From assembly GCA_937864235.1 (NCBI GenBank), contig CALMJI010000018.1, forward strand, positions 73,955 to 137,954: 64,000 nt of DNA, given 5' to 3'. Every line of letters begins with the position of its first letter. Positions within the stretch are counted from its first letter, which is position 1. This document shows, in pieces, positions 19,280-60,330 of the stretch. A model generated the notes under the pieces. That model did no database searches. It was not told the DNA's origin and worked only from the letters and a program-made list of their open reading frames with translations. The translations under genes and the position numbers were made by a program. This stretch comes from an uncultured bacterium (GTDB lineage: Bacteria; Patescibacteriota; Minisyncoccia; SW-4-49-11).

Positions 19280-19480
19280 TTGTCTCCTTTATTTTGTCTC
19301 CCTCCATATTTCGTAGGGGCGACCTTTCAGTCGCCTGTGTTTTTTCTAAAATTCCCCTATTGAGGGCTTTAAGTCCCTCCTATATTTATTTAGGAGGGGG
19401 TGGCACGGAGTGCCGGGGGTGGACTGTATTTGTATTTCTGTCCTCCCTTGGGGGAGGTGCCCGCAGGGCGGAGGAGGACA
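19280..19480. repeat. GC-rich modular intergenic repeat (modules GGCGAC-loop-GTCGCC, CCCCT-a-ttGAGGG, GGCAC-gga-GTGCC, CCTCCC-ttgg-GGGAGG)
   Basis: Same module family as the other loci. Confidence 0.8.
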
Positions 19481-19485
19481 TTCCA

Positions 19486-19854
19486 TTACAATCTATCCCT
19501 CACTATATCTTCAAGAATTATCATAACTCCATTTATAGACTTTAGAACTTCTTCATCAGTAAATCTAATTACCATAAAACCTAAATTCTCTAAATATTTT
19601 TGTCTAATAATGTCATTATCATAAATCTCTGGATGATTATGACTTTCTCCATCTACTTCTATAATTATTTTTAATTCTAGACATACAAAATCTACAATAT
19701 ATCTACCAACCGGTCTTTGTCTTCTAAAAATAACACCTAGTTTTTTACTCTTTAGACCATATTTCCATAAACAAGCTTCAGCTTTGGTCATAGAAGATCT
19801 TAATTTGTAAGCAACTGGTTTTAATCTTTTATTATAACTATTATTTTCTTTCAT
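19486..19854 (-). CDS. DUF559 endonuclease-domain protein (Vsr-like fold)
   Basis: RYIVDFVCLELKIIIEVDGESH...KYLENLGFMVIRF DUF559 signature. Confidence 0.8.
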   Translation of the reverse strand: MKENNSYNKRLKPVAYKLRSSMTKAEACLWKYGLKSKKLGVIFRRQRPVGRYIVDFVCLELKIIIEVDGESHNHPEIYDNDIIRQKYLENLGFMVIRFTDEEVLKSINGVMIILEDIVRDRL

Positions 19855-22414: not shown

Positions 22415-23239
22415 TTGCACATTAATAAAATGTTATTCAAAATAGTGTCTCATTCAGTAGTCCAAATTCTAGAGTTTTACCTAAAATGCTCTTGGCTTGA
22501 ACCTACACCATATTCACGACAAGCAATTTATAAAGAAGCAGAAGCTTTTAAAAAGCTAAAACAATGCTCCCCATTTGCAATCCCATGGAATATGGAAATA
22601 AAGTTAGGACCATATATTTGTATCCTAACCCGAAATGCTGGGACTTCATTAGCCACTCTATTAGATTCATCACAAAGTGAAGAATATATCCACTATCTAG
22701 CAGATTTTCTAAGCAACCTAGAAAATTGGATTATAAGTACAAGCTATGAAGTGTCTATAGAATCTTTAACCATAAATCCTTGGTTAAAAACTAAAGAAAA
22801 AATAATATCTCTACTCAATGAAGGAGATAATCATCACTCATTACATCAAGTAAAAACAAACCTACAGACTCCCCCAACAGCAAGAGTATTTGAAGAACAC
22901 GGAGACCTAAACCTAGAGAACATTATGTTCAAGCAAGGCAAAATAACACTCATTGACCCTAGATTTGGAGTATACCCAATAGCATTTCCTTATCTCAAAA
23001 TGTTATATATGTGGACATTACTACATAGCGGGGCAGACTGCTCACACTTAGTCGTACAAAAGATATTAGAATCTATACAAAAGATGGGATTGTCCGAAGA
23101 GATAAAAGTTCTACTACCCACAACCCTACTCAGGATAAAATATCCTCAAATGATGGAGCCCAAATTCCATCATCTACTCAACCCTACAAAATCAGATGAA
23201 GTCATAGCAATATTAGACTTTATTTGGAGTAATCTATAA
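22415..23239 (+). CDS. phosphotransferase (APH/choline-kinase-like kinase fold)
   Basis: Catalytic loop HGDLNLENIM and IDPRFG metal-binding motif. Confidence 0.5.
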   Translation: MHINKMLFKIVSHSVVQILEFYLKCSWLEPTPYSRQAIYKEAEAFKKLKQCSPFAIPWNMEIKLGPYICILTRNAGTSLATLLDSSQSEEYIHYLADFLSNLENWIISTSYEVSIESLTINPWLKTKEKIISLLNEGDNHHSLHQVKTNLQTPPTARVFEEHGDLNLENIMFKQGKITLIDPRFGVYPIAFPYLKMLYMWTLLHSGADCSHLVVQKILESIQKMGLSEEIKVLLPTTLLRIKYPQMMEPKFHHLLNPTKSDEVIAILDFIWSNL

Positions 23240-23240
23240 A

Positions 23241-23267
23241 AGGAAGAAATTTTCTTCCTTTTTTTCT
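23241..23267 (+). terminator. rho-independent terminator
   Basis: AGGAAGA...TCTTCCT hairpin followed by a T7 run, directly after the stop codon. Confidence 0.6.
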
Positions 23268-23307
23268 TTTTATATGATAATCTACAGATAATATTTATAC
23301 ACTATAT

Positions 23308-23949
23308 ATGAATCAATATAATCTCAGAATTTTATTCATCAGGCATGCAGAAAGCCAAGCCAATACCACCCCAGATATAATAGTAGGCAGACAAGCAGAA
23401 TCCCCACTAACAGAATTAGGAGAACAACAAGCACAATTACTAAGACATAGATTAGAAGAAATCTCTGATCCATATATATACACCTCAAATCTAATCAGAT
23501 CTCAAGCCACCACGACACTAGCCATAGCCCCAGATTTGCATCACAAAATCAAAATAATACCTCAGCTACAAGAATTCACCAATGGAGACTGGGATGGGAA
23601 ATCTCGTAAAGAAATCTACACCCCCCAACAATTAAACCAAATCAATACAGCAGGATACCTATTCATACCACCAAATGGAGAATCCCAAAGAATGGTACAA
23701 AGAAGAGCCTCTAATTGGCTAGAAGATGAAATACTATACAATCCAGAATTCCAAGGAACCCAAGAAAAAACAATTTTAATCTTTTCACATGGACTAGTAA
23801 TCAAAAGCCTACTCCACTATATATTAGGATTCTCAGATAGATATATATATCGTTTTAAATTAGTCAATACTGGAATATGTGAATTCAAATACACAGAAGA
23901 AGGCTGGTTCCCTATAGCTATCAATGATACAAAACATCTAGTAAAATAA
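23308..23949 (+). CDS. histidine phosphatase family protein (phosphoglycerate-mutase-like)
   Basis: RHAESQAN catalytic RHG-type motif at the N-terminus. Confidence 0.75.
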   Translation: MNQYNLRILFIRHAESQANTTPDIIVGRQAESPLTELGEQQAQLLRHRLEEISDPYIYTSNLIRSQATTTLAIAPDLHHKIKIIPQLQEFTNGDWDGKSRKEIYTPQQLNQINTAGYLFIPPNGESQRMVQRRASNWLEDEILYNPEFQGTQEKTILIFSHGLVIKSLLHYILGFSDRYIYRFKLVNTGICEFKYTEEGWFPIAINDTKHLVK

Positions 23950-24009
23950 TCCACCTCCCCACAAAATATGCTATAATAAACACATACCAATTAATCCTAA
24001 ATTAATATT

Positions 24010-24327
24010 ATGCTACTCACAACCACATCCCAAATCTCAGGAAAAGAAATCACAGAGTATAAAGGAATAGTCAACGGCGAAGTCATCCTAGGAGCCAACG
24101 TCTTCCGAGACATTATGGCCTCAATCAGAGACTTCATCGGAGGGAGGTCAGCCGCCTATGAAGAAGTACTCAAAAAAGCCAAAGAAGAAGCCTTTCAAGA
24201 AATACAACAAGAAGCCAAAAAACTCGGAGCCAATGCCATAATCGGAATCGATATAGACTATGAAATGATCGGAACCGGAATGCTCATGGTAGCCGTCAGC
24301 GGAACCGCCGTCGTAACCAAAGAGTAA
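24010..24327 (+). CDS. YbjQ/UPF0145 family protein
   Basis: 105 aa; [11 protein letters not shown]...[13 protein letters not shown] signature. Confidence 0.8.
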
Positions 24328-24338
24328 TCTCAACTGAT

Positions 24339-24611
24339 AAATTCCCCTCTCGAGAGATAGCAGGCTTTGCCTGACGGGGTGGAGTATTTCTGTACTTCAC
24401 CTTTCTGTCTCCCTTTGGAGGGAGTACCCGTAATAGACTGAAAGTCTGGGAAAGGGGTCGGGAAAACGGCAGTTTTCCCGTGGAGGAAGGCTGGGAAACC
24501 GTGAGGTTTCACAAGAGCAAATCTCATTTGCGACGGGGGAGGGTGGATAAAACACAAACTAAAACTCTATCCACCTCCGGCACTCTGTGCCACCTCCTCC
24601 AAAGGAGGACA
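24339..24611. repeat. GC-rich modular intergenic repeat (includes GCAAATctcATTTGC hairpin module)
   Basis: Shares modules with 25248-25492, 37190-37300 (inverted) and 60200-60290. Confidence 0.8.
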
Positions 24612-24736
24612 ATTACTATCCAATTTACTGTTATTAGTCTAGTAATGTATATAATCCCTTTTGTCGACGATTACCTCATCTCGCACATAAACTTGACAAA
24701 ATATTAAGTTTAAGTTAATATTGAGATACAAATTGC

Positions 24737-24780
24737 CACTCGGCACGACCCTTATTAGGAATATTTCCCGATAAGGGGTT
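24737..24780 (+). terminator. rho-independent terminator (plus-strand orientation) abutting the 3' end of the mazF-like gene
   Basis: CCCTTAT...ATAAGGGG hairpin followed by TTATTTTTTTAT. Confidence 0.45.
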
Positions 24781-25186
24781 ATTTTTTTATAAATATATCT
24801 AAAAAGGCCTGCTTCACTATATCAAAATCCTGAGGAGACATAATACCTTTTCTATAATGTAATCGTTTAGCATCTAAAACTCTCATCTGAGATATTAATG
24901 CTGAATATTGCTTCCCTTTATATATGAACGGAATATAAAATTGATTATTTGGTTTTATTTTAGTACTGGTTGGAATAGCAAAAAATAGTTTTTGATTAAA
25001 TTTGTGCAACACAATAACTGGTCTATGGAAATTAGAATTTCTTCCACTCATTTCAAAACCCACATTCTCACCTAAATAACTCATCCAAATTTCTCTTTCT
25101 CTAAAAGCTGGCAATTTAGCAGATGATATATCTATTTTCTCTTTTAATCCAATCCACTCCTGAAATCTTTTTATAAACTTTTGCAT
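24779..25186 (-). CDS. MazF/PemK-family endoribonuclease toxin-like protein (copy 1)
   Basis: REIWMSYLGENVGFEMSGRNSNFHRPVIVL...AIPTSTKIK...ISQMRVLDAKRL matches the MazF/Kid/EndoA fold signature. Confidence 0.65.
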   Translation of the reverse strand: MQKFIKRFQEWIGLKEKIDISSAKLPAFREREIWMSYLGENVGFEMSGRNSNFHRPVIVLHKFNQKLFFAIPTSTKIKPNNQFYIPFIYKGKQYSALISQMRVLDAKRLHYRKGIMSPQDFDIVKQAFLDIFIKK

Positions 25187-25250
25187 ATTATATTTTTGAT
25201 TATTATTTACCTAGTATATACCCAAAACTTTATTAAAGCAAAAGTTTCTG
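25187..25250 (-). promoter_or_regulatory. conserved promoter/5' leader module (TTGCTT-17-TATACT ... TATAAT-ATG) shared by three toxin genes
   Basis: About 60 nt nearly identical at 25187-25250, 25983-26045 and 28833-28895, continuing into the first codons ATGCAAAAgTTT. Confidence 0.55.
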
Positions 25251-25492
25251 TCCACACCCACCGCTATGCGGCCCACTCGCCGGCGAGGGACAGTTTTTTG
25301 GGGGGCTCGGCGGTAACTTTGTCCTCCCTTCGGAGGGAGTACCCGTAGGGTGAGGGTGGATGGGCTATTTTTGTCCTCCCTTGGGGGAGGTGGCCGTCAG
25401 GCCGGAGGAGGACAGGAGCAAATCTCATTTGCGACGACGGAGTGAGGACTTGCTCACTGCCCTTTTACGATAAAAGGCATACCCAAGATAGT
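25248..25492. repeat. GC-rich modular intergenic repeat
   Basis: Modules CTCCCT-tcgg-AGGGAG, GCAAATctcATTTGC and CCTTTTAcgaTAAAAGG-catacccaagatag. Confidence 0.8.
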
Positions 25493-25583
25493 AAATCTAA
25501 ACTTGACAATCAATACTATATATTGTAATATAGTTACATATTTGGGATTGTCCCACGTACCTCTCCTCGGAGAGGACTATTTT

Positions 25584-25982
25584 TTATCTATAGAGATTAG
25601 AAAATCCCTTTTTTATATCAAAAAAGTCCTTATTATCTAAATCACCCATATAGGTTGTTAGTCTTCTAAAATCTATTGTCCTTGCTTGAGCTAAATTTAC
25701 AACTTGGGCTCTGCCCCGATGAGTAAATGAAACATACCAAGAGCCCTCTTTTATTTTTGTAGAACAAGGTAAGACCATAAACTGATATCTACTTAGTTTT
25801 TTCAAAATTACAACTGGTCTAGTAAAACTATCGTTTTTACCACTAACCTCAGTACCTATGTTTTCTCCCACACTACACCACCAAATCTGCCCCTCCTTAG
25901 TAAAGGGAGGTTTGCTATTAGATTGATCTAATTTAGGCTTTATAGCTAACCACTCCTGAAATCTTTTTATAAACTTTTGCAT
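25584..25982 (-). CDS. MazF/PemK-family endoribonuclease toxin-like protein (copy 2, paralog)
   Basis: Identical first 11 aa (MQKFIKRFQEW) to copy 1; GQIWWCSVGENIGTEVSGKNDSFTRPVVIL...LPCSTKIK...AQARTIDFRRL. Confidence 0.65.
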   Translation of the reverse strand: MQKFIKRFQEWLAIKPKLDQSNSKPPFTKEGQIWWCSVGENIGTEVSGKNDSFTRPVVILKKLSRYQFMVLPCSTKIKEGSWYVSFTHRGRAQVVNLAQARTIDFRRLTTYMGDLDNKDFFDIKKGFSNLYR

Positions 25983-26045
25983 ATTATATTTTTGATTCTT
26001 ATCTATCTAGTATATCCTAAATATTTTAGTAAAGCAAAAGCTTCT
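25983..26045 (-). promoter_or_regulatory. conserved promoter/5' leader module (copy 2)
   Basis: See 25187-25250. Confidence 0.55.
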
Positions 26046-26192
26046 GTCCTTCGCCCTTTTGTCCCCCTTCGGAGGGGGTGCCTGCAAGGTGGGGGTGGCT
26101 TGTATTCTGACCCTCACTGCCCTTCTGTCCCTCGCTTTTTAATCCGCCTTGGGAGGAAGCGAGGGTGGCACGGAGTGCCGGGTGTGGACTGT
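26044..26192. repeat. GC-rich modular intergenic repeat
   Basis: CCCCCT-tcgg-AGGGGG, aatccgccttgggaggaagcgaggg and GGCAC-gga-GTGCC modules. Confidence 0.8.
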
Positions 26193-26220
26193 ATTTTTCT
26201 TTCCTATCTACAAACCTAAT

Positions 26221-27291
26221 TCACCCAATACTTTGAAAATAATTATTCACAGCAAATTCATATTGCTCTATGAATATCTTTTTGAAATAAGTAATATTAT
26301 TAGTCTCATAAAATAATATACTAGCCTTTTTATACTCAGCCTCAGATACCCCTCTATAAGACAATGGCGTATAATCATAAGCAATCAACATAGCATTAGA
26401 TACAAGTCTAGCAGTCCTTTTATTCCCATCCTCAAAACCCTGTATATATGACAATAAAATTAAGCTGAAAAACGCCTTCTCAAACACATTAGAAGTCCCA
26501 TTCACCAATTTTACCATAGACTTTATAGCCTCCTCAATATGAAACATATTATCTATTGGCCTATAATTAGTCCCCACAATACCAACTGGAGACTTTCTCA
26601 AATTATGAGTAATATTCAAATTTTTAACCAAAATCTGATGAGCTTTTTCAATAAAAGCCTGCTTCAAAACTTTAAAACTCTTTTTATGAGCTATCACAAA
26701 ATCAAAAGCCTCCTTATGATTAAGAATCATTTGAGTCTCCTCCTGACTTTTACCAACCGCACTTTGATGATTGACAATCAAAGACTCCGTATCCAAAAGA
26801 GAATAAGTGTTTCCCTCAATCTGAGAAGATTTCCAAGCAAACTCAATAATTATCCTTTCAAACTCCTTATGCTTAATCACCTCACTATCTATACCCTCCA
26901 GATTACTAACAAAAGTTTTATGCAAACTCTCCAAATAACTCATTTCCTCCTCCGTAAAAACTGAAGTCTCCGCCAAAAGTTTAAAAATATCAAAATTAAA
27001 TTTACTACTAACTATCCTCTCATCCTGAGGAATAGCAAAATACTTCTCCACATCTACAGGCCTCAAAATAGCATAGCTAGGAGACAAATGATACTCCACA
27101 CCGCGACCAGCACCAGTCTGTACCAAATACCCAAGATCACATAATAATTGCAAATCCCTGACAATAGTCACACGAGAAACCTCCTCAGCCAAAAACCCCA
27201 TTATATCCAAAACCGCCCCACTACCATGAGACTCAAAAAACTCCATAACTCTAAGCTGGCGAACATTAAGCACAATATTATCCTGCTTCAT
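26221..27291 (-). CDS. Fic/DOC family protein with N-terminal wHTH, inhibitory-helix-like SxxxEGN motif and degenerate Fic motif
   Basis: QGFEDGNKRTAR in place of canonical HPFx(D/E)GNGRxxR (His to Gln); SSQIEGNTYS upstream resembles the class II inhibitory motif. Confidence 0.65.
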   Translation of the reverse strand: MKQDNIVLNVRQLRVMEFFESHGSGAVLDIMGFLAEEVSRVTIVRDLQLLCDLGYLVQTGAGRGVEYHLSPSYAILRPVDVEKYFAIPQDERIVSSKFNFDIFKLLAETSVFTEEEMSYLESLHKTFVSNLEGIDSEVIKHKEFERIIIEFAWKSSQIEGNTYSLLDTESLIVNHQSAVGKSQEETQMILNHKEAFDFVIAHKKSFKVLKQAFIEKAHQILVKNLNITHNLRKSPVGIVGTNYRPIDNMFHIEEAIKSMVKLVNGTSNVFEKAFFSLILLSYIQGFEDGNKRTARLVSNAMLIAYDYTPLSYRGVSEAEYKKASILFYETNNITYFKKIFIEQYEFAVNNYFQSIG

Positions 27292-27374
27292 ATAAAATAA
27301 TTAAATCATTAATTCAATCTAATTGTATCATAAATGATACAATTAAGCAATTGCAGTGATATAATTAAATATCG

Positions 27375-27680
27375 TCATCTCCACCCTTCGTAGGGGCGAC
27401 CTCTCAGTCGCCTGTATTTTGTACTAAATTCCCCTCTCCTCCCAAGGCGGATTTCATTGAGGGGTGGACAGCTTCGCTGGACGGGGTGGAGTGTATTTTT
27501 GTCCCCCTTTGGAGGGGGTACCTGCAAGGTGGGGGTGGATTGTATTCTGCCCCTCACTGCCCTTTTGTCCCTCGTTTTTTAATCCGCCTTGGGAGGAGGC
27601 GAGGGTGGCACGGAGTGCCGGGTGTGGACTGAGCTTCCCTCCCCTTTTACGATAAAAGGCATACCCAAGATAGTAAATCT
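27375..27680. repeat. GC-rich modular intergenic repeat (largest mosaic copy)
   Basis: Contains nearly all modules seen elsewhere, including a nested insertion of the aatccgccttgggaggag module inside the CCCCTC...GAGGGG hairpin. Confidence 0.85.
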
Positions 27681-27810
27681 AATTTTGACAAAATCAAACA
27701 ATAGAGTTATTATTATTATATATTCGGCATTAGCCGCGACCCTCTTGAAATATAGAGGGGTTATAAATAGGTAGACTAAGAGATCCTGGGCTACCTATTT
27801 TATATTATAA

Positions 27811-27990
27811 CTACTTACCCTCTGATTTAGCTTGTTTTTCCTTCATCATCTGCTCATATTTTCTAAGCATACGATTCTGATCCTCTGAAGATTGTTCAAC
27901 AGCTTTATATACAGCTCTTCTTTGGTTCTCCTCACTAAATAGTTCCATTAGGTATTCTCTATTCCTTTGCTCTTCTTTTACCTTGTCCAT
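27811..27990 (-). CDS. small charged helical protein downstream of the zeta-like gene (possible antitoxin or partner)
   Basis: 59-aa ORF (MDKVKEEQRNREYLMELFSEENQRRAVYKAVEQ...) translated by me and absent from the supplied track; start lies 21 nt after the zeta-like stop; analogous to the small ORF at 37417-37623. Confidence 0.3.
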   Translation of the reverse strand: MDKVKEEQRNREYLMELFSEENQRRAVYKAVEQSSEDQNRMLRKYEQMMKEKQAKSEGK

Positions 27991-28010
27991 ACTTGTTATA
28001 TTAATTATAC

Positions 28011-28832
28011 CTATCTTATATCATCTATTAGATTTTGTAAAGTGTCAGGAGTATATACTTTGATCAACCCATCTGACTTACAACCCTCTAAATAACTCTC
28101 CACATTTTGAATATTATATTCATATTTTTTAATTTTATTATCATCTGACTTTATTACAATATTGACATTCACTCTGTCTTCAAAATCTTCTTTAACTCTA
28201 ATAATATTTTGTTGGGATTGAAAAAACTGATCTATAAACTTATCTTTTAGAATGTTCCTCCCTTCTGTATATTCTCTAGCTACCGTAAATCTCCAAGCTA
28301 CAATAGGATCAAGATAAAGATAATATATATTTATAATTCTATTCTGTTTCAAAGACTTAGTAATTAACTTTTTCATAGTAGAGTAATTACTAAAAGTTCC
28401 ATCATGCAAAAAAGAAATATCATTTTTAAAACAATAATCTCTAATAATATCCAAGCCCTTGTTCGCAGCCTTCTGCACCACCTCAGCATTTCCCTTAATA
28501 TTATTATCCAAATCCGTCACACTATATTGAGGGATAAAAGTTCTAATCTCATCCACATCAATATGAATAAAAGGCATCTTCACATTAGAAGCAATCCCAT
28601 CTGAATTGAAGTCAATATTCAATTTTCCTTCAAAAATAGCCGGAATATATCTCCTCACAAATTCAGTTTTACCAGCTCCGGGGGAGCCAGCCATAAATAA
28701 AGAAATTCCACCCCCTATAGCCAAAGGATTATATCTTTTTACAAAATGATTTATCAGAGAATCTTTATTATCTAACACAAAGTCCAAAGCCTCTTGCTCC
28801 AACTCTAATTTTCTTTGACTAAAATTTTGCAT
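28011..28832 (-). CDS. zeta-toxin-like P-loop kinase (PF06414-like)
   Basis: Walker A FMAGSPGAGKTE, about 270 aa, zeta/PezT-like layout. Confidence 0.65.
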   Translation of the reverse strand: MQNFSQRKLELEQEALDFVLDNKDSLINHFVKRYNPLAIGGGISLFMAGSPGAGKTEFVRRYIPAIFEGKLNIDFNSDGIASNVKMPFIHIDVDEIRTFIPQYSVTDLDNNIKGNAEVVQKAANKGLDIIRDYCFKNDISFLHDGTFSNYSTMKKLITKSLKQNRIINIYYLYLDPIVAWRFTVAREYTEGRNILKDKFIDQFFQSQQNIIRVKEDFEDRVNVNIVIKSDDNKIKKYEYNIQNVESYLEGCKSDGLIKVYTPDTLQNLIDDIR

Positions 28833-28895
28833 ATTATATTTTTGATTCTTATCTATCTAGTATATCCTAAATATTTTAGTAAAGCAAAAACTCCT
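28833..28895 (-). promoter_or_regulatory. conserved promoter/5' leader module (copy 3, on the zeta-like gene)
   Basis: See 25187-25250. Confidence 0.55.
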
Positions 28896-29150
28896 GTCCT
28901 AAAATTCCCCTCTTTTGGCAATCCGCCTACCTACGGCAGGTAAACCTTGGGAGGAGAGGGGTGGACAGCTTCGCTGGACGGGGTGGAGTATTTTATACTT
29001 TTCTCTTGCCCTTCTGTCCCCCTTTGCCTGCCTGCGGTAGGCAGGGAGGGGGTGCCTGCAAGGTGGGGGTGGATGTTCTCTTTCTGTTCCCCAGTGGACT
29101 ACCCCTTCCCTCCCCTTTTACGATAAAAAGAATACCCAAGATAGCCATTG
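28893..29150. repeat. GC-rich modular intergenic repeat
   Basis: Modules shared with 27375-27680. Confidence 0.8.
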
Positions 29151-29153
29151 AAA

Positions 29154-30806
29154 TTATTTTATATCCTTAAAATAATTTATAGTCTTTTGCAAACGATTTA
29201 ATCTTTCTTTTTTTTCATCATCTAATGTATCAAGATCAATATCTTTAATCTGACTCTGTATATCTTTATAAAAATTATCATCCAACTTGTAAATTTGTTT
29301 TAATAAGACTATAGTGTTATTTATTTCTATTTTATCAATTTTATTTTCATATTCTCTATTTTCTTCTGGACTTCCATTATCTACATTACTAATAATCCCC
29401 CAAAATACTTGTTTTTTCAAATACTCCTTCACATTATCTTTTACTACTCTTTTAAACCATATCAATTCCAAAACTCTTATAAATAAAATTGGGTTAATAT
29501 CTGGGACAAAAGCATTAATTAGAATATTTACTTTTCTAATATCTTTAAATTCTAATTTTTTATATGAATTATAAAATACCTTTTCTTTCCAAGTCTCATA
29601 TATATATTCTAACATTATATTAAGCCAATAATATGTGATTTTATTATCTTCTTCTGATTGTAAATTAGATAAATTAATTTGCCACTTTATATCTGACTTA
29701 ATCCAGTGATAGTTTAAGACATCCTTTGCAATAAACTCATCCTTTGAACTCAATATCTCTGTAATTACTCTTTGTCCAAAATATTTGAAAAATTCCAAGT
29801 ATTCCTTATTCTCTCCTTTGAGCTGAACAACTTTGTCTTTATGTCCCTGAATATGTCTATCCAAAGACTCAAAAAAATCTATTGTAGCAGAGACTGGATG
29901 TGGATCTTGTAGAGACTTCTGTAAAATTTTGATCAGAATCTCCTCAGAAATCCTATATATCTCATATAATTCAATACTTTTACTTGCATTATCTTCATTT
30001 TCAGCAGACTCTTGATATTGATACCAAAAACTATAACTGTATTCAAATAGTTTGGTGATAAATTTTTTATTTTGATACTTAAAATTAATCTTGGCAATAT
30101 TATGATAGATAATATTTAATAGTTTATAAATACTTTGATATTCATTTGTTTTAATATATTTATTTACTTGACCTAATATTAGTTCCATAAAGCTTTTCTC
30201 TTCTTCAAAATTCCAGTCTGCAAAACCTTCACCATCACTTTGATATGACTGTTTTTCTATGTTTGCTTTATCATTTGGAATTGCATTAAAGATGTCATTA
30301 ATATTATCTATAAATGATTTATCTTCTTTTTTTATAATATCAAGCCAGTACTTTGTTTTATTAGTGCTATTAATATATTTGCCAGATTCATCTATAGAAT
30401 ATACTAAAAAAACATTAGCCCCAACCCATAAAATCAAACCAATAAGTTTTAAGTAAATATAATCAATATCTACTAATATTACTGAAATTATTGTAATAAC
30501 AATAATACAAATATTTGATCTTACATTAAAGATTTCTGAGAAGATAACTCTTAACTCAATATTGAAACTGGGTTTTTCTTTTTTACTCAATATTGACTCT
30601 ATAATTGAGATAGCGATTGGTATATATAAGCTATAAAGTAGCATTGTCCCTCCTTGTAATAATTGTGATATGTTATTCATTTTATCATTTATCATTAAAG
30701 TAAATATATATCCTCCAATCCACCAAAGAATACAAATAAATATAATTACAATATTAACAATATATATATACTTCTTAGTTGCTCTATCTTGATCTCTATA
30801 GTTCAT
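29154..30806 (-). CDS. hypothetical membrane-anchored protein (last gene of the glycan operon)
   Basis: 550 aa, about 4 N-terminal TM helices then a helical soluble region; extremely AT-rich. Confidence 0.4.
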   Translation of the reverse strand: MNYRDQDRATKKYIYIVNIVIIFICILWWIGGYIFTLMINDKMNNISQLLQGGTMLLYSLYIPIAISIIESILSKKEKPSFNIELRVIFSEIFNVRSNICIIVITIISVILVDIDYIYLKLIGLILWVGANVFLVYSIDESGKYINSTNKTKYWLDIIKKEDKSFIDNINDIFNAIPNDKANIEKQSYQSDGEGFADWNFEEEKSFMELILGQVNKYIKTNEYQSIYKLLNIIYHNIAKINFKYQNKKFITKLFEYSYSFWYQYQESAENEDNASKSIELYEIYRISEEILIKILQKSLQDPHPVSATIDFFESLDRHIQGHKDKVVQLKGENKEYLEFFKYFGQRVITEILSSKDEFIAKDVLNYHWIKSDIKWQINLSNLQSEEDNKITYYWLNIMLEYIYETWKEKVFYNSYKKLEFKDIRKVNILINAFVPDINPILFIRVLELIWFKRVVKDNVKEYLKKQVFWGIISNVDNGSPEENREYENKIDKIEINNTIVLLKQIYKLDDNFYKDIQSQIKDIDLDTLDDEKKERLNRLQKTINYFKDIK

Positions 30807-30825: not shown

Positions 30826-33105
30826 TCAGAATTTTTTTATAGCAGCCCTCATTTTTTTACGGCTCAAGTTATAGCCAATATATCCAAGGCTTAACACCAA
30901 AGTAGTGCCAGAAATTGTATATAGTATATTATTGTATCTAATAGGTTCAAATACTAAATCTAGTTCTAAATTAATACTTCCATCTTGATTAAGAGTATAT
31001 CCTTGATTATTCTTTATAATATCTTCATAGTTAATATAAAAACTATTTGCATAATCAAATTTTTTTGTGTTTTTAAAGATATTATAATCTATATCCTTAT
31101 TAGATAATCTCCACATTTTATGATATATGTCTAAGAAATTAAGATATGAATCAGATTTTAAATTTTCTATATAAATTTTATAATGTCCTTCATTAATTCT
31201 TTCATATGTAATATTATCATTATATTCTCTACTCAATTCATTCAAACTATCACTAAGATGAATTTTATTATAAGAATAGTCTTTATTGATATTATATAAT
31301 GAGTATCTACCAAAATCTCTAACCTTATCACCTAATAATTTATCTTTTATCTCTTGCTGTACCGCATACAAGTCTCCTGATGATCTGTAGCTATAAACAT
31401 AACTATCTTTAATTTCAGTAGGTAAGTCATTATAAACAATAATATAATTTACATTCATCTTAGCAAAAAAATTCAATAAATGTTCATAATCTTTATTTAA
31501 TATTTTATCTCCAATATTTTCACCCTGTGATAAAAATCCTAATATCCCAGTAAAATCAGTTTTATTAGACACAACCTTAAGTGGCGACACCCCAAAATAA
31601 AACCCATTTTTATTACTCACATCCTGAATGAATACATAATTAGCTTTATTTAATGGATACCATAAATACTTACCATTATTATCCTCATTGTCTTTTATAA
31701 AATTAGCCAAATCTATAAAATCGCTATTAAGTTCATTTACTTTTGGATATATATTTTGTGTTGTCCATATAGGTAGATTAAAGTAATCACCTCTGAAAAA
31801 AGGTATAGAATTTAATAGTATGACTAGAATAAATATAAAATAAAGTATATTTTTATAAAAAATTTTTAGATCAGCTATTATATATAATGATATAGCAAAT
31901 AAAAATGCATATATAAATGCCATTGATATAGCAAATTTATCATACATATTTCTAAAGAGTGTAAATAGAGGGATTTTTTCACTCAAGAATATAAATATAT
32001 TTATACCCTCTTTCCCAATATTAGCCGTATATAAATATAGTATTATTAAAAATATTAATAAAGAATAAATATATATAGTATGTTTTTTTATTTTTGCTCT
32101 AAAAAATATTATAGGGGCTAAGATTATTATTAAATAGATATAATTAAAGTTAAAAAACTTTAGATGCCATCCCTCATAGATTGATAATGTGTTCCAAGAA
32201 AAATCTTTTTGTATAGAATAATGTGGCAAATTTAATAATGGATATAATACATTATTATTTTTTGAAACCGATATTATTGTATTTTTATTTGCTTCTATAA
32301 ATTCCTGAGAAGTTAGAGAATTAACTATATCATTATCTTTAATATCATTATTTCTAGAGTTTAGTAGATGATATATCCAATATATATTTAACAATAATAA
32401 TATTATTATGAATATGAATAGGTGCTTGAGAAATATTTTATAATCTTTTTTAATTAAATATATAATTACTGGTAAAGATGTAATTGTTAAAGCCAAAGCC
32501 CATGGCACAGACAATATCAAAGTACTAAATATACTTAGTATTATTGTACTAAGTAAGGTATAAATATATTTGTTTTCAAGAACTCCTTTAGAAAATATAT
32601 ATAAAACTATAGGGAATATTGATATAAAATATATTGCGAATAATTGATTACCCCAACCCGATATAAAAGTAAATGTAGAAAATATATACATTAATGAGGA
32701 TATAGACTTAATGTATATGTTTTTTATATTAGTTGTTTTAATAAATATCCCAAGTAATAAGTACATGCCTAAAAAACCAAAAGCTAGGTTTAGCGACAAC
32801 ATTAAATACTGTATATTTACAGCTCCAAAAGATATAGTTTTAATAATATATATTAAAAATGAAAAAGATAGTATGTAGGATTGGGGGAAATAAAATCCTA
32901 AGCCACCTATATTATTTTCAGATATAATTGATGTAGTAAAGTTTTTAAAATATTCATACGGATACATATAATATAATCTTCCATCATCACCCCCAACAAA
33001 GTAGTCTTTTCCCCAAAATAAAATAGGTATTAATATTAAACATAAAAATACAAAAGTAATAGAAAAAACTTCTATCTTAGCTATTTTTTTGCTATCACCA
33101 AACAT
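30826..33105 (-). CDS. large polytopic membrane protein (putative polysaccharide polymerase / membrane glycosyltransferase)
   Basis: 759 aa, more than 12 TM helices, embedded in the glycosyltransferase operon. Confidence 0.45.
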   Translation of the reverse strand: MFGDSKKIAKIEVFSITFVFLCLILIPILFWGKDYFVGGDDGRLYYMYPYEYFKNFTTSIISENNIGGLGFYFPQSYILSFSFLIYIIKTISFGAVNIQYLMLSLNLAFGFLGMYLLLGIFIKTTNIKNIYIKSISSLMYIFSTFTFISGWGNQLFAIYFISIFPIVLYIFSKGVLENKYIYTLLSTIILSIFSTLILSVPWALALTITSLPVIIYLIKKDYKIFLKHLFIFIIILLLLNIYWIYHLLNSRNNDIKDNDIVNSLTSQEFIEANKNTIISVSKNNNVLYPLLNLPHYSIQKDFSWNTLSIYEGWHLKFFNFNYIYLIIILAPIIFFRAKIKKHTIYIYSLLIFLIILYLYTANIGKEGINIFIFLSEKIPLFTLFRNMYDKFAISMAFIYAFLFAISLYIIADLKIFYKNILYFIFILVILLNSIPFFRGDYFNLPIWTTQNIYPKVNELNSDFIDLANFIKDNEDNNGKYLWYPLNKANYVFIQDVSNKNGFYFGVSPLKVVSNKTDFTGILGFLSQGENIGDKILNKDYEHLLNFFAKMNVNYIIVYNDLPTEIKDSYVYSYRSSGDLYAVQQEIKDKLLGDKVRDFGRYSLYNINKDYSYNKIHLSDSLNELSREYNDNITYERINEGHYKIYIENLKSDSYLNFLDIYHKMWRLSNKDIDYNIFKNTKKFDYANSFYINYEDIIKNNQGYTLNQDGSINLELDLVFEPIRYNNILYTISGTTLVLSLGYIGYNLSRKKMRAAIKKF

Positions 33106-36917: not shown

Positions 36918-37390
36918 CTCAATCCACCCCGTCCAGCGTAGCTGTCCACCCCTCGAGAGGGGAATTAGCTCAGTCCTACTCCGGCCTATCGGCCACCTCC
37001 CCCGAGGGAGGACAAGAGGGCAAGTTGCAAAGTACATCCACCCTCCCCCTTCGGGGACTCCCTCCTAAGGGAGACAGAAGCTCTGAAGGCCAGAAATCCA
37101 ATATTCAAAATACACTCCACCCCGTCCAGCATAGCTGTCCACCCCTCAAGAGGGGAATTTAGCTCAGGCTGCAAAATACGGTCCTCCTCCGCCGTCGCAA
37201 ATGGGATTTGCTCCTGTGAAACCTCTCGGTTTCCCAACCTTCCTCAACGGGAAAACTTCTGTTTTCCCAACCCCTTTCCCAGACTTTCAGTCTACTTCGT
37301 GCCACCTCCCCCAAGGGAGGACAAGAGGGCAAGTTGCAAAGTATCAAATACAGGCGACTGAGAGGTCGCCCCTACGAGATGGGAGGGTAG
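36918..37390. repeat. GC-rich modular intergenic repeat (about 470 bp, two tandem composite copies)
   Basis: Module set similar to 38420-38645; contains an inverted copy of the GCAAAT..ATTTGC / gtttcccaaccttcctc module seen at 24430-24540. Confidence 0.8.
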
Positions 37391-37416: not shown

Positions 37417-37623
37417 TTAAATAGTTTTTTTCTTAATTTTTGCCCATTTTTTCATATTGTCTTGTTGTTCTTTATTTGCAAATTCAGATACTTTTTGTAA
37501 CCAATAAAGTCGCTCTTCTAGCGGAGCTTTATTCATTATATAATCAATAGTTGGTCGTTTTTCTCGACTCTTAAAATTCAGTGATTTAGTTATATTCTTA
37601 TAAATATCTAATACTTTTTTCAT
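37417..37623 (-). CDS. small helical protein overlapping (4 nt) the 3' end of the zeta-like gene
   Basis: 68 aa; translationally coupled; weak resemblance to the 59-aa ORF at 27811-27990. Confidence 0.35.
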   Translation of the reverse strand: MKKVLDIYKNITKSLNFKSREKRPTIDYIMNKAPLEERLYWLQKVSEFANKEQQDNMKKWAKIKKKTI

Positions 37624-38324
37624 AATAATTGTTCTAATTCTTCTTTATTATATACTTTTTGTAATGCTTCATCAAGTTGTTTTATATTTGTAATTGGAAT
37701 AAGGTTAAGATTTTCAGTGGATTTTATATCTACTCGATTGAATAGTAATATTTCTACTTCTTCATTAGAAAAAGTTTCTCTTATACTTCTTACTGTTTGA
37801 TATGCTCCAATATATTTTTGGATAAAAGTTTCTTTGAGAATACGGCGACCTTCTTCTTTTTCTCTATTTTGAGTATATTGCCAAGCATATTCGGGTTGCA
37901 GGTAAATATAAATAACAGTGACTTTTCTTTGCCTTCTGAGTGATCTTATGATATTTTCTTTAGCTCTATGTTTATCTGAGAATGTGCCATCTAGGATAAA
38001 GGAGATATTTTGGTCTAAAAGCCTATCATGAATATAACTTACAAGTTTACTCATAGCTTTTTGGAAGAGATGAGAGTTATTACCTTCATATCCTGGCAAT
38101 ATAGATCGGTATAAATCTCCATCCAGATGTAAAATATTGCCATCTAATAATTCCACTACTCCCCTAGCCCATTCGGTCTTACCTGCACCGGGAGAACCTG
38201 CCATAAAAATTGAAAGTGGCACATCTACTGAAGTATAATCTAGGAGTAAATCTTTAGTGATATTTTGTTTGTGTTTGCGGATATAGTTAATAGCTTCTTG
38301 ACTAATATCTTTTTCTTTAGCCAT
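37620..38324 (-). CDS. zeta-toxin-like P-loop kinase (second paralog)
   Basis: Walker A FMAGSPGAGKTE; 234 aa. Confidence 0.65.
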   Translation of the reverse strand: MAKEKDISQEAINYIRKHKQNITKDLLLDYTSVDVPLSIFMAGSPGAGKTEWARGVVELLDGNILHLDGDLYRSILPGYEGNNSHLFQKAMSKLVSYIHDRLLDQNISFILDGTFSDKHRAKENIIRSLRRQRKVTVIYIYLQPEYAWQYTQNREKEEGRRILKETFIQKYIGAYQTVRSIRETFSNEEVEILLFNRVDIKSTENLNLIPITNIKQLDEALQKVYNKEELEQLL

Positions 38325-46611: not shown

Positions 46612-46692
46612 ATATGTATAACTTAATATTACTAATATGTGATGTACATCTGTCTGGAGGGGACCCTCCTTATTAATATTATAACTCTAATT

Positions 46693-46719
46693 TTAGCAGT
46701 GTCAAGATGTGGCTGCTAA
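46693..46719. promoter_or_regulatory. CIRCE-like inverted repeat (putative HrcA operator) upstream of hsp20
   Basis: TTAGCAGTG-N9-GGCTGCTAA versus CIRCE consensus TTAGCACTC-N9-GAGTGCTAA; about 80 nt upstream of the hsp20 start. Confidence 0.35.
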
Positions 46720-47479: not shown

Positions 47480-47624
47480 ATTTAAAAAAATATTCTACTT
47501 AACATTTATATTATATCATATTTGCACAAAACAAAAACTCCCTCGAGGGGAGTCTTTGTAAAAATTTATAAAAGAGCTTGTGTATTATATAAATTTTAGG
47601 GTTTTGTGTCAAGGGAATAATATC

Positions 47625-48369: not shown

Positions 48370-48750
48370 TGTCCTCCTCCGTCACTTTACGGTGCCACCT
48401 CCCCCAAGGGAGGACAGTAATTTTGTCCCTCGCCGGCGAGGGTGGCACGGAGCGCCGGGTGTGGACTTGTCTTTGATAGGTATTTTTTATCCACCCTCCC
48501 ACTACGGGTACGCCCTCCCTGCCTACCGCAGGCAGGCAAAAGGAGACAAAAAGCAGAGTTCAGGCGACTGAAAGGTCGCCCCTACGAGGACAGAATATAC
48601 TATTTAACTCTATCCACCTCCGGCCTAAAGGCAACCTCCTCCTAAGGAGGACACGATCTCCAATGCAGGACAATCCACCCCGTCAATAAAAGATTTCCAC
48701 CCCTCAATGAAATCCGCCTTGGGCGGAGAGGGGAATTTTAATATAGCCCC
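48370..48750. repeat. GC-rich modular intergenic repeat
   Basis: Modules shared with 19280-19480 and 10872-10971 (ctgcctaccgcaggcaggc, GGCAC-gga-GCGCC). Confidence 0.8.
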
Positions 48751-49424: not shown

Positions 49425-49471
49425 AATTAAGTTAAGTAAAGAGATATTTTATTATAAAAGAAAGTAGTTTG

Positions 49472-49544
49472 TGGACCGTACTGGGATCGAACCAGCGACC
49501 TCTTCCATGCCATGGAAGCGCGCTACCAACTGCGCCAACGGCCC
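49472..49544 (-). tRNA. tRNA-Ala (anticodon GGC)
   Basis: Hand-folded cloverleaf: acceptor GGGCCGT/ACGGTCC with the G3:U70 Ala identity pair, D-arm GCGC-AGTTGGTA-GCGC, anticodon loop AT-GGC-AT, T-arm GCTGG-TTCGATC-CCAGT; CCA not encoded. Confidence 0.8.
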
Positions 49545-50180: not shown

Positions 50181-51011
50181 ATGATTGGTTTCCGTGCACA
50201 CAATGGTTTTGCCCGCCTTAAAATGTATAATGGTATTATGGGTGCCTTGCACTTCTTTCAAGCTGGTTTGATGCTATATGTATCTAAAGAAGCTTTATTC
50301 CCTGTAACGACTAATTACCTTGACTTTGATTCTGCTACTCGTAGTGCAGCTCCTGTTACAGAGAAGTTTTTTGATATAAATCTTGGTCCAGCAGTAGCTT
50401 TGTTTTTGTTATTATCTGCTATTGCCCACTTTATTACAATATTACCGAATGTTTATCCTTGGTATATCAAGAATCTTAAAAATCATATCAATGTCATCCG
50501 ATGGTATGAATATGCTCTATCTTCTTCTGTGATGATTGTACTTATTTCTATTTTAGTAGGAATTTATGACTTCTCTACTCTATTATTGTTATTTGGAATC
50601 AATGCTAGCATGAACTTGTTTGGGCTAATAATGGAGCAGATTAATCAGGATCGTAAAGATGTTAATTGGCTTCCTTACATCTTTGGATGTATTGCTGGGA
50701 TTATACCTTGGATTGTAATTTTCCTACATTTCCAAGGAGCTATTTCATCCGCTGAGGTGGAAGTTCCTACTTTTGTCTACTTTATTGTATTCTCTCTATT
50801 CGCGGTATTCAATGTATTTGCACTTAATATGTTCTTACAGTATAAGAAAATTGGTCCTTGGAAATCTTATGTATTCGGAGAAAAATTCTATATTTTCTTA
50901 TCCCTATTTGCTAAGTCTCTCTTAGCTTGGCAAGTGTGGTCAGGGACTCTAAGAGGTACTGAGAATGAAGTATCTGCTATTATCTCTAATATATTTAGTA
51001 TATTTTCATAA
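50181..51011 (+). CDS. heliorhodopsin (7TM retinal protein, inverted topology)
   Basis: Blocks as I recall them from heliorhodopsin 48C12: RLKMYNGIMGALHFFQ (N-terminal), IRWYEYALSSSVMIVLI, FGINASMNLFG, FGCIAGIIPW, and retinal-Lys block LFAKSLLAWQVWSGTL in TM7. Confidence 0.75.
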   Translation: MIGFRAHNGFARLKMYNGIMGALHFFQAGLMLYVSKEALFPVTTNYLDFDSATRSAAPVTEKFFDINLGPAVALFLLLSAIAHFITILPNVYPWYIKNLKNHINVIRWYEYALSSSVMIVLISILVGIYDFSTLLLLFGINASMNLFGLIMEQINQDRKDVNWLPYIFGCIAGIIPWIVIFLHFQGAISSAEVEVPTFVYFIVFSLFAVFNVFALNMFLQYKKIGPWKSYVFGEKFYIFLSLFAKSLLAWQVWSGTLRGTENEVSAIISNIFSIFS

Positions 51012-55561: not shown

Positions 55562-55650
55562 TTCCTCGCCAATTTTTCCGTAGGGGCGACCTCTCAGTCG
55601 CCTGTGTTTTCGTAGAGGAGAGTGACTTCCCTCAACACACCCCAATTATT
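55562..55650. repeat. GC-rich repeat module (GGCGAC-ctctca-GTCGCC type)
   Basis: Same module as 27387-27410, 19313-19335, 37355-37378 and 56430-56455. Confidence 0.75.
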
Positions 55651-56393: not shown

Positions 56394-56429
56394 ATAAAAT
56401 ATATTTTTTGTTTCAAAACACAAACACTA

Positions 56430-56562
56430 CGGGCGACTGAGAGGTCGCCCCTACGAAGCACAAAATACATCCACCCCCGCCTTTCAGGCTTCCCCCTCCG
56501 AAGGGGGACAAAAAATCAACCACTCCACTACAAAATAAATGTCGGCGAGGTCGCCGACTCTA
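56430..56562. repeat. GC-rich modular intergenic repeat
   Basis: gggcgactgagaggtcgccc and GTCGGCGAggTCGCCGAC hairpins. Confidence 0.75.
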
Positions 56563-60174: not shown

Positions 60175-60194
60175 ATATTTCTTGTCTTTTGAGA

Positions 60195-60319
60195 GAGTAG
60201 GATGAGAACCTGGGGAAGGGGTCGGGAAACGAGAGTTTCCAGTGGCGGAGGTATTGGAACCGAGGGGTTCCAAGGAGTGAATCCCATTCACGACTGGTTT
60301 GCAATCCTACTCGCGGAGC
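60195..60319. repeat. GC-rich repeat module followed by a partial direct copy of the tRNA-Asn 3' end (60295-60319)
   Basis: GGTTTGCAATCCTACTCGCGGAGCA versus tRNA GGTTCGAATCCTACTCGCGGAGCCA. Confidence 0.7.
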
Positions 60320-60330
60320 AAAATCCCTTT

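Follow-up and report, generated by a model that had tools for sequence, protein, structure and literature searches.

The 64-kb window analysed here (the whole stretch of 64,000 nucleotides) belongs to the chromosome of a Candidatus Paceibacterota bacterium, a member of the candidate phyla radiation (CPR), with a genomic GC content of 35%. Its gene content is that of an ordinary chromosome and comprises, among others, subunits of an A/V-type ATPase, a P-type ATPase, histidyl-tRNA synthetase (HisRS), cyclophilin, Hsp20, glycosyltransferases, a heliorhodopsin, and a group I intron. Within it lies an island of minus-strand genes (Table 1), consisting of two genes for MazF/PemK-like endoribonucleases (MazF-1 and MazF-2), a gene for a helix-turn-helix (HTH)-Fic protein, and a gene for a kinase of the zeta-toxin family (zeta-1) followed by a 59-residue open reading frame (ORF). 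The element of principal interest is a putative small RNA gene. It is predicted three times, facing the 3' end of MazF-1, MazF-2, and the 59-residue ORF from the other strand. All of the ORFs listed in a first-pass annotation of this DNA, made from the letters alone, were found where it had placed them, and its assignments to toxin families hold, with the PemK_toxin, Fic, and Zeta_toxin profiles all passing the Pfam cut-offs. Protein families were scored with Pfam against the gathering cut-offs, as well as with NCBIfam and PADLOC. None of the island proteins scored above the cut-offs of NCBIfam, and PADLOC matched only the Fic protein in the island, with no match for MazF, zeta, or the 59-residue ORF. 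Related or homologous contigs compared with the window are labelled L001–L033.

The three convergent units share one layout. A near-consensus promoter is positioned to drive a two-hairpin unit of 55–90 nucleotides, with the elements following in the order 3' box, promoter, short hairpin, ACGACC-like linker, and a GC-rich hairpin with a run of T residues, which ends on the stop codon of the convergent gene or a few nucleotides within it. In copy 1 the terminator overlaps the stop codon of MazF-1 by 10 nucleotides, and copy 3 has a third hairpin, whose T-run runs out just short of the stop codon of the 59-residue ORF. The three best promoter matches between positions 24300 and 29300 are the plus-strand sites at 24693, 25503, and 27685. 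Of the 62 genes of the window, only three, namely the two MazF genes and the 59-residue ORF, have immediately beyond their stop codon a convergent promoter whose −35 element is exactly TTGACA.

The same architecture is found at a considerable evolutionary distance. A convergent promoter with a two-hairpin unit follows every homolog of this MazF subfamily that was examined, down to 44% identity, and this includes the homologs of 44–60% identity on the unrelated contigs L024, L025, L027, L028, L031, L032, and L033 (two copies in the last). The 3' end of the RNA lies between −3 and +10 nucleotides from the stop codon in 8 of 10 units. Conservation of the 3' flank (0.654) equals that of the coding sequence (0.656), and exceeds that of the 5' flank (0.575) in 33 of 36 pairs of loci. 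The NYN (PIN-like) and DUF3800 genes of related arrays (L018 1–4300, L002 7400–9700, and L033 1900–3000) have convergent promoters and hairpin/terminator units of their own, whose sequence is unlike that of the MazF-linked units; the convergent-unit architecture is, therefore, general for modules of this kind.

Both hairpins were recovered by RNAalifold from 15 units aligned with MAFFT, and 8 of the 9 base pairs show compensatory changes. The stems of hairpin 1 covary among units, as GGGA/TCCC, GCC/GGC, GGC/GCC, CGGC/GCCG, CCGA/TCGG, and CGAC/GTCG. Cells of the alignment that fall in predicted pairs are paired in 87.4% of cases, compared with 69.1% in shuffled alignments, and none of 500 shuffles reached as high a value; cells with both partners changed number 31, compared with 11.8 after shuffling, and pairing does not exceed 66% in any slid register. 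Among units whose MazFs are 44–60% identical, the sequence of hairpin 1 and of the bases that flank it (AUAUU-YGGGAUUUCCCR-CG) is retained. In addition, the motif UACA is frequent in the single-stranded leader, UACA(A/U)AUU, and is absent from the leaders of L024, L025, L031, and L033a.

A covariance model of the unit, R1, gave 32 matches with E<1e-6 over 198 kb of sequence. In the 64-kb window exactly three matches are significant, all of them in the island (24723–24788, 25532–25586, and 27714–27769). The model also finds copies outside its training set that are convergent to every MazF paralog of L017, one of which (L017 818–867) lies on the opposite strand, convergent to a paralog that is itself reversed, as well as tandem copies after a 56-residue ORF in L017 and L005. 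When the 29 distinct R1 matches were aligned, the picture of covariation was the same, in an alignment that is itself fitted to the model. A search with Rfam 15 gave no match at gathering score in the island, and no match with E<5 overlapping the three small-RNA loci. Taken together, the sequence comparisons support well the existence of the unit as a structured RNA and its linkage to MazF.

Assignment of the RNA to one of the two strands is more delicate. The antisense strand is indicated by the promoter and by the T-run that follows hairpin 2, as well as by the G·U pairs present in three members, which fold on the RNA strand alone since they would be A·C mismatches on the other. Folding energy was also tried as a criterion for the choice of strand and was indecisive, favoring the RNA strand in 11 of 19 members, so that only the three members with G·U pairs discriminate.

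Table 1. Coordinates of the features of the island and its surroundings (positions in the window)
Feature	Position	Strand	Remarks
Left flank	22415-24327	+	Three genes, kept on all related contigs whatever the island content; outside the variable island
APH-like "kinase" ORF	22415/22430-23239	+	Weak: APH 18.1 bits, under the 23.2 cut-off
Histidine phosphatase	23308-23949	+	Pfam His_Phos_1, E 8e-38
YbjQ	24010-24327	+	Pfam YbjQ_1, E 1.6e-39
GC-rich hairpin mosaic, REP/BIME-like	24340-24615	+	G-rich strand on +; sub-units recur in the window and in L018/L019
Putative promoter of small RNA copy 1	24693-24721	+	TTGACA-17-TAATAT; convergent with MazF-1
Putative small RNA copy 1	24723-24788	+	Leader, hairpin 1 GCC/GGC, ACGACC linker, terminator hairpin and T-run; R1 39.6 bits, E 3e-8
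MazF/PemK-like endoribonuclease 1 (MazF-1), 135 aa	24779-25186	-	PemK_toxin (PF02452) E 1.2e-7, 32.3 bits (cut-off 23.1)
P5 promoter/leader box, variant copy	25187-25253	-	Upstream of MazF-1
GC-rich hairpin mosaic	25231-25460	+
3' box leading into putative promoter of copy 2	25454-25531	+	3' box CCCTTTTACGATAAAAGGCATACCCAAGATAG...; promoter TTGACA-17-TAATAT (25503-25531)
Putative small RNA copy 2	25532-25586	+	Hairpin 1 GGGA/TCCC, ACGTACC linker, terminator T-run on the MazF-2 stop; R1 41.5 bits, E 7e-9
MazF/PemK-like endoribonuclease 2 (MazF-2), 132 aa	25584-25982	-	PemK_toxin (PF02452) E 7.6e-10, 39.4 bits (cut-off 23.1)
P5 promoter/leader box	25983-26050	-	Upstream of MazF-2; identical to the zeta-1 copy
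GC-rich hairpin mosaic	26031-26210	+	26057-26191 is 95% identical to 27497-27631
HTH-Fic protein	26221-27291	-	Pfam Fic E 1.3e-9 and weak N-terminal HTH; motif QGFEDGNKRTAR; intact SxxxEGN inhibitory motif
Putative Fic promoter	27320-27350	-	TTGCTT-17-TACAAT; overlapped by perfect 11-bp inverted repeat AATTGTATCAT-TT-ATGATACAATT
GC-rich hairpin mosaic	27379-27635	+	Holds a GTAG-type REP-like unit, 27389-27413
3' box and putative promoter of copy 3	27636-27713	+	TTGACA-17-TATTAT (27685-27713); best promoter match in the region, 11/12
Putative small RNA copy 3	27714-27805	+	Core 27714-27769; R1 50.5 bits, E 1e-11
59-aa charged helical ORF	27811-27990	-	Downstream of zeta-1; candidate protein partner/antitoxin; no family match
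Zeta-toxin-family kinase 1 (zeta-1), 273 aa	28011-28832	-	Zeta_toxin (PF06414) E 1.5e-27, 96.8 bits; Walker A GSPGAGKT, IDVDEIR segment
P5 promoter/leader box	28833-28900	-	Upstream of zeta-1; identical to the MazF-2 copy
GC-rich mosaic	28900-29162	+	Degenerate 3' box at its end (29107-29162)
68-aa ORF	37417-37623	-	Downstream of zeta-2; start overlaps the zeta-2 stop (ATGA)
Zeta-family kinase 2 (zeta-2)	37620-38324	-	Zeta_toxin (PF06414) E 5.4e-36, 124.4 bits; Walker A GSPGAGKT

The two MazF-like proteins are 41% identical to each other. An AlphaFold model of MazF-2 (predicted local distance difference score, pLDDT, 78.5) consists of an N-terminal helix followed by a MazF barrel, and all of its top Foldseek matches in the PDB are MazF structures, with target template-modelling (TM) scores of about 0.7–0.78 and E-values down to 5e-7. 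A search of PDB chains with the MazF-2 sequence gave nothing; a profile of the family reaches B. subtilis EndoA/MazF and other MazF structures. Arg55 is invariant in 22 sequences, and the Ser/Thr of a P-x-S/T-T segment aligns to the corresponding positions of EndoA, in which R25 and T48 are presumably the catalytic Arg and Thr/Ser. Since the EndoA profile match, the retained Arg and Ser/Thr, and the predicted MazF fold all agree, these proteins look active. At 50% identity the subfamily, which is marked by the extra N-terminal helix, falls into at least 298 clusters (E<=1e-30). It extends beyond the CPR to solitary genes on plasmids of Campylobacter, Helicobacter, and Nitratiruptor, and on CJIE4 prophages, in the last of which the MazF gene stands alone between the terminase and portal genes.

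The first-pass annotation had found no canonical antitoxin ORF upstream of the MazF-like or zeta-like genes, and our reading agrees: no antitoxin-like ORF is present in any module, the additional ORFs being translations of repeat mosaics. In particular, neither the modules nor some 15 homologous loci contain an ORF for MazE or PemI. Hidden protein antitoxins were considered as well and rejected, with ORFs of at least 20 residues within the modules proving to be repeat-derived or antisense artefacts.

MazF is the textbook type II toxin, neutralised by the protein MazE. In the modules described here, the MazF endoribonuclease and the convergent small RNA form a conserved two-gene unit in which the RNA would replace MazE. 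The RNA matches the 3' end of the toxin transcript with perfect complementarity, and an abundant cis-antisense RNA would pair with that end of the messenger, resulting in cleavage or destabilisation of the duplex or, alternatively, in transcriptional interference. We infer that the RNA is transcribed, that MazF is toxic, and that the RNA neutralises it, all three from the sequence. The chances appear to us about evenly balanced that the small RNA serves as the antitoxin or regulator of the MazE-less MazF, most likely by an antisense mechanism. Pairing in trans with the 5' untranslated region (UTR) and start of the toxin gene was examined and discarded, since the energies of cognate and non-cognate pairs (−13.75 and −13.81 kcal/mol, calculated on DNA letters, so that only their comparison is meaningful) reveal no specificity. 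As there is no cognate-specific complementarity to the 5' UTR, the only guaranteed target is the 3' end of the toxin transcript.

Several observations weigh against such an antisense antitoxin. The promoter and terminator are consensus matches only, and the pairs of sequences used in the tests of conservation and covariation are phylogenetically related, so that the statistics quoted above are not independent. Minimum free energy favors the RNA strand in just 11 of 19 members, and, because folding energy does not favor that strand overall, the complementary hairpins could work in the 3' UTR of the messenger instead. The RNA family also follows the 59-residue ORF, which is not a MazF, and non-homologous convergent units follow the NYN and DUF3800 genes; given this distribution, the unit may be a general 3'-end device of the modules rather than an antitoxin specific for MazF. 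Finally, if the RNA acted in cis as an antisense alone, the sequence of hairpin 1 would not on that account have to be conserved.

That last point leads to a mode of action resembling type III systems, in which the structured small RNA would bind and inhibit the MazF-like RNase directly and not through base pairing, perhaps after being cut in its single-stranded UACA(A/U)AUU leader, as ToxI is for ToxN. The retention of hairpin 1 and its flanks in sequence at 44–60% MazF identity, with changes in the stem compensated, speaks for this mode, as do the co-occurrence with the MazF subfamily, which is 100% in the loci examined, and the lack of cognate-specific pairing with the 5' UTR. Many of the leaders also hold UACA, which we take to be the core of the site cleaved by the MazFs of B. 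subtilis and S. aureus, with the four units named above standing as exceptions. Nevertheless, direct inhibition appears unlikely to us. The RNA family is also found after the 59-residue ORF of the zeta module, and the unrelated convergent units after the NYN and DUF3800 genes favor a mechanism that is independent of the protein. Moreover, the RNA is single-copy and convergent, with no tandem array upstream on the same strand, and the fold of the protein is that of MazF, not of ToxN.

It is also improbable, in our estimate, that the unit has no antitoxin role at all, the hairpins being a bidirectional terminator or a stabiliser of 3' ends and the promoter serving for insulation or interference, or being unused. 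The MazF-like proteins would then be stand-alone RNases, for example defence effectors under some other control. Such an account is in line with the near-palindromic nature of the hairpins, which fold about equally on both strands, with the similar promoter–hairpin units found after unrelated cassette genes, with the presence of distant homologs among restriction-modification and other defence-type genes, and with the absence from PADLOC of a model for these MazFs. A terminator alone, however, leaves unexplained a near-consensus promoter kept at a fixed distance where the other non-coding flank has diverged, as well as the limitation of such a promoter to just 3 of the 62 genes of the window, and the G·U pairs favor the antisense strand. 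From what is established in toxin–antitoxin biology, an active MazF devoid of any inhibitor would also be hard to maintain.

With regard to the antisense antitoxin, the closest parallels are the type I systems of Firmicutes with a 3'-overlapping antisense RNA, such as txpA/RatA and bsrG/SR4 of B. subtilis or the par RNAI/RNAII of E. faecalis. Common to them and, as predicted from sequence, to the present units are the convergent genes for toxin and RNA, a strong promoter belonging to the RNA itself, complementarity to the 3' end of the toxin messenger, a terminator that is shared or lies at the junction, and the absence of a protein antitoxin. Type I toxins are, with few exceptions, small hydrophobic peptides, whereas the candidate toxin is here a soluble RNase of 132–135 residues with the MazF fold; the hairpin is, in addition, conserved in sequence and structure across distant loci, and both expression of the RNA and antisense action are here putative. 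In type III systems the RNAs are tandem repeats that precede the toxin gene and run in its own direction, and the toxin itself processes them. The toxins of ToxIN, CptIN, and TenpIN have an endoribonuclease fold related to Kid/MazF and are neutralised by a structured RNA, but the RNA of the present units is single-copy (two copies after the 56-residue ORF in L017 and L005) and convergent at the 3' end, and the protein is a MazF and not a ToxN. The type II systems mazEF and pemIK have in common with the modules the PemK/MazF Pfam family, the MazF fold, and an Arg and a Ser/Thr at the aligned catalytic positions; they differ from them in that about 15 loci of the present kind contain no gene for MazE or PemI, the protein has an extra N-terminal helix, and its monocistronic gene faces a convergent small RNA.

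Tentatively, and with a likelihood that we place somewhat below even, these modules could represent a new class of toxin–antitoxin systems, in which MazE-less MazF endoribonucleases are neutralised by a conserved, convergent, two-hairpin small RNA at their 3' end. A MazF lineage with an RNA in place of the protein antidote would blur the boundaries between types I, II, and III, and would account for many of the "orphan" MazF genes now annotated as type II toxins. It would likewise provide a rare functional small regulatory RNA in CPR/Patescibacteria, where RNA biology is almost unexplored, and would illustrate how reduced genomes package toxin- and defence-type genes as plug-in modules with common promoter and 3' boxes. 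In the literature searched, the only antisense RNAs found were those that modulate canonical mazEF or relBE loci, and nothing was found on toxin–antitoxin RNAs of the CPR.

The Campylobacterota deserve separate mention. At the stop codon of their MazF homologs an antisense extended −10 element and two hairpins were read by eye, and R1 gave no significant match on them; the likeness thus appears to be one of common layout, with homology of the RNA not demonstrated. The MazF-like gene of the C. jejuni plasmid pVir (WP_011117588, at 30.6 kb) encodes a member of the subfamily (34% identity), and carries an antisense extended −10 element, TGATATAAT, at about 31,119–31,138 of NC_005012, together with hairpins at the stop codon, also read by eye; R1 did not match this flank. 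As summarised in two later papers (Shen et al. 2016, as cited in PMC7826846 and PMC10470494), pVir encodes a validated antisense RNA antitoxin, cjrA, with the toxin cjpT. A validated small RNA of the plasmid, Cjpv2, maps near 25.2–25.4 kb (PMC5447181), in a gap that contains small hydrophobic ORFs. Since Cjpv2 maps about 5 kb from the MazF-like gene, cjrA/cjpT is probably a type I locus of the classical kind, distinct from the MazF gene of pVir. Should CjpT nonetheless be the MazF-like protein, the units described here would be further members of a system already known.

The zeta-like kinases were found, as predicted, in two copies, each with a Zeta_toxin match, and they are 31% identical to each other. 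The small ORF reported downstream of zeta-1 is that of 59 residues, and the 68-residue ORF after zeta-2 had been passed over in the first-pass annotation. No ORF for epsilon or PezA was found upstream of the zeta genes, no R1 small RNA is present at zeta-2, and a search of PDB chains with the sequence of zeta-1 revealed no relative with a solved structure. In L002 and L004, zeta is deleted to a remnant of 30 nucleotides and the 59-residue ORF is kept, and in L019 (1047–1871) the ortholog of zeta-1 has an in-frame stop at codon 77, in a module that is otherwise 94% identical to that of the window. Either the toxin has been inactivated by this stop or the assembly is in error. Two cases in which the kinase is lost or broken while the small ORF is kept conform to the pattern predicted for a toxin with a downstream antitoxin, and the zeta kinases are, by this sequence evidence, probably paired with the small ORFs that follow them.

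The Fic protein stands apart from the other members of the island, and its gene has neither a P5 box nor a small RNA. Its motif, QGFEDGNKRTAR, is indeed degenerate with respect to the canonical HxFx(D/E)GNGRxxR, and it departs as well from the HxFx(D/N)(A/G)NKR of Doc, the catalytic His not being present. The HTH-Fic family is very large (at least 8000 relatives), and of the 120 best homologs 119 have a Gln where the catalytic His would stand (QxFxDGNKR), accompanied by SxxxEGN. PADLOC matches the protein to SoFic / PDC-S04 with modest E-values. The inverted repeat over the promoter suggests autoregulation and may be the operator for the HTH domain of the Fic protein itself. Since the catalytic His is replaced throughout the family, this HTH-Fic protein probably does not AMPylate. 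It probably also regulates its own gene, and the earlier inclusion of it among the toxins is not upheld.

The island had been suspected to be accessory rather than core, and comparison of contigs bears this out. The flanks are conserved, with the kinase-like, phosphatase, and YbjQ genes and a 791-residue membrane protein on one side, and glycosyltransferase and membrane genes on the other. Of the three genes formerly named kinase, phosphatase, and YbjQ, the last two are confirmed by Pfam and the kinase is weakly supported, its APH score lying below the cut-off. Since the gene content between these flanks differs across related contigs, the region is an accessory, strain-variable chromosomal island. 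Contigs with an identical MazF-2 or YbjQ protein display several arrangements. That of the window is present in L001, L003, L009, and L010; L005, L017, and L023 have zeta, the 56-residue ORF, MazF-2, and YbjQ, without Fic and MazF-1; and in L002 and L004 the order NYN, 59-residue ORF, DUF3800, and MazF-2 is found between two large membrane-protein genes. MazF-2 is tandemly duplicated in L006, and L017 has five MazF paralogs. In the island of a Paceibacterota metagenome-assembled genome (MAG), five MazF paralogs are joined by a zeta gene and by a 179-residue ORF that has a convergent unit to itself; this MAG also has a second array with NYN, DUF3800, and KilA-N-like genes. When a conserved 31-nucleotide 3' box from the island was searched for in 185,579 GTDB species genomes, the sole match was to a Candidatus Paceibacterota MAG, which speaks for the placement of the organism given above. 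The more distant loci of the MazF subfamily (44–60% identity) are often found among restriction-modification genes, and one of them, L033 (1–6459), contains a SoFic-like Fic, DUF3800, two MazFs, each with an R1 RNA, an MmeI-type methyltransferase, and a Schlafen/AlbA_2 protein, that is, the same gene families as the island of the window in a setting resembling a defence island.

BLASTN comparisons show that homology between contexts stops at fixed nucleotides, at the edges of GC-rich mosaics. The MazF-2 module, from 26049/26050 to 25436–25454, is about 96% identical in five contexts, and the module of zeta-1 and the 59-residue ORF (28900 to 27634) recurs in L019. Each module is opened by P5, a common box of promoter and leader that reaches into the first codons, with identical copies upstream of MazF-2 and zeta-1 and a copy with three mismatches upstream of MazF-1, and is closed by the common 3' box; no Shine-Dalgarno sequence was found on the genes of the island. 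A typical module would accordingly have four parts, namely P5, one toxin- or defence-type gene, a sigma-70-type promoter with a 55–90-nucleotide RNA on the opposite strand, and the 3' box, and such modules would be gained, lost, duplicated, and reshuffled between strains. The shuffling most likely proceeds by homologous recombination among the common boxes and the generic GC-rich repeats that surround them. Two neighboring genes may be of the same nature. A gene with a DUF559/Vsr-like endonuclease fold (19486–19854, minus strand, Pfam E 8e-31), which is solitary between GC mosaics beside the gene of the 791-residue membrane protein and is not present in L002, may be a further accessory module. 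A 550-residue ORF adjoining the island (29154–30806, minus strand), with no match in Pfam, NCBIfam, or PADLOC, is limited to contigs with the arrangement of the window, being absent from L002 and L017, and is possibly another variable module.

GC-rich mosaics border every gene of the island, as had been noted. Those between modules are reshuffled sets of common hairpin sub-units, and about 20 patches are distributed over the 64 kb in both orientations, including beside the HisRS, cyclophilin, Hsp20, and epimerase genes. Because they occur throughout the window, housekeeping genes included, the mosaics are not junctions particular to the island, and are best described as generic interspersed repeats resembling the repetitive extragenic palindromic (REP) sequences and bacterial interspersed mosaic elements (BIME) of proteobacteria. 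They resemble these in being short, GC-rich, imperfect palindromes, intergenic and chromosome-wide, arranged in variable mosaics and in both orientations, and differ in occurring in a CPR genome with 35% GC, with no gene for a REP-associated tyrosine transposase (RAYT) in the window, and in often ending in a defined box directly upstream of a promoter. In the related MAG, too, mosaics and the terminal box lie directly upstream of the promoters of protein-coding genes. One repeat unit, GTAGGGGCGACC-TCTCA-GTCGCC, is found on the plus strand at 19302–19358, 27379–27435, and 55569–55625, and on the minus strand at 37349–37377, 48559–48587, and 56428–56456; it consists of GTAG and a palindrome, the form that is usual for REP elements moved by RAYT transposases. 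Recombination probably finds its homology in the mosaics, which may also serve as terminators or stabilisers.

The cassette array envisaged in the first-pass annotation is thus retained insofar as the modules are discrete, accessory, and bounded by repeats, and abandoned as an integron-like array with dedicated junction repeats. An integron has an IntI integrase beside an array of promoterless cassettes ending in attC. Chromosomal arrays such as the Vibrio superintegron are comparable in their strain-variable, single-gene units, their richness in toxin-type genes, and their repeated 3' element, and differ in that neither IntI nor a recognisable attC is present here, a promoter comes with every unit, and the repeats are not specific for the array. 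That the mosaics are dedicated recombination junctions, terminators, or insulators between promoterless toxin cassettes is most improbable: the modules are discrete and polymorphic, homology does stop at the mosaic edges, inter-module mosaics are indeed reshuffled from common sub-units, and L006 does contain a tandem duplication, but the mosaics occupy some 20 patches in both orientations, also by housekeeping genes, each module has a promoter of its own, no integrase, transposase, or RAYT-like gene is found among the ORFs of the window or the called genes of related loci, and no conserved attC-like core sites were seen (no formal search with an attC model was made). An integron or transposon mechanism was rejected on the grounds that the 64-kb window contains no recombinase and the modules carry their own promoters.

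Four further features of the window lie outside the island. A group I catalytic intron (59794–60092, plus strand; Rfam RF00028, 86.5 bits) is located between ORFs of 171 residues (59136–59651) and 389 residues (60460–61629), with a GC mosaic downstream of it (60191–60320). It is outside any tRNA gene, and ARAGORN finds only a tRNA-Ala, at 49471–49544. A full-length heliorhodopsin gene is present at 50181–51011 on the plus strand (Pfam PF18761, E 1e-95). The leader of the Hsp20 gene (46612–46705, minus strand) has a consensus promoter and an AAGGAGG sequence enclosed in a GGAGGG-TCCCCTCC hairpin, and by its sequence looks like an arrangement of the RNA-thermometer type. Lastly, between the cyclophilin and serine-hydrolase genes, and co-directional with both, a TTGACA-17-TATAAT promoter (47612–47584) is followed by a short hairpin and a T-run (47528–47612, minus strand), with a weak R1 match (E 0.25); this unit is possibly an independent small RNA or an attenuator.

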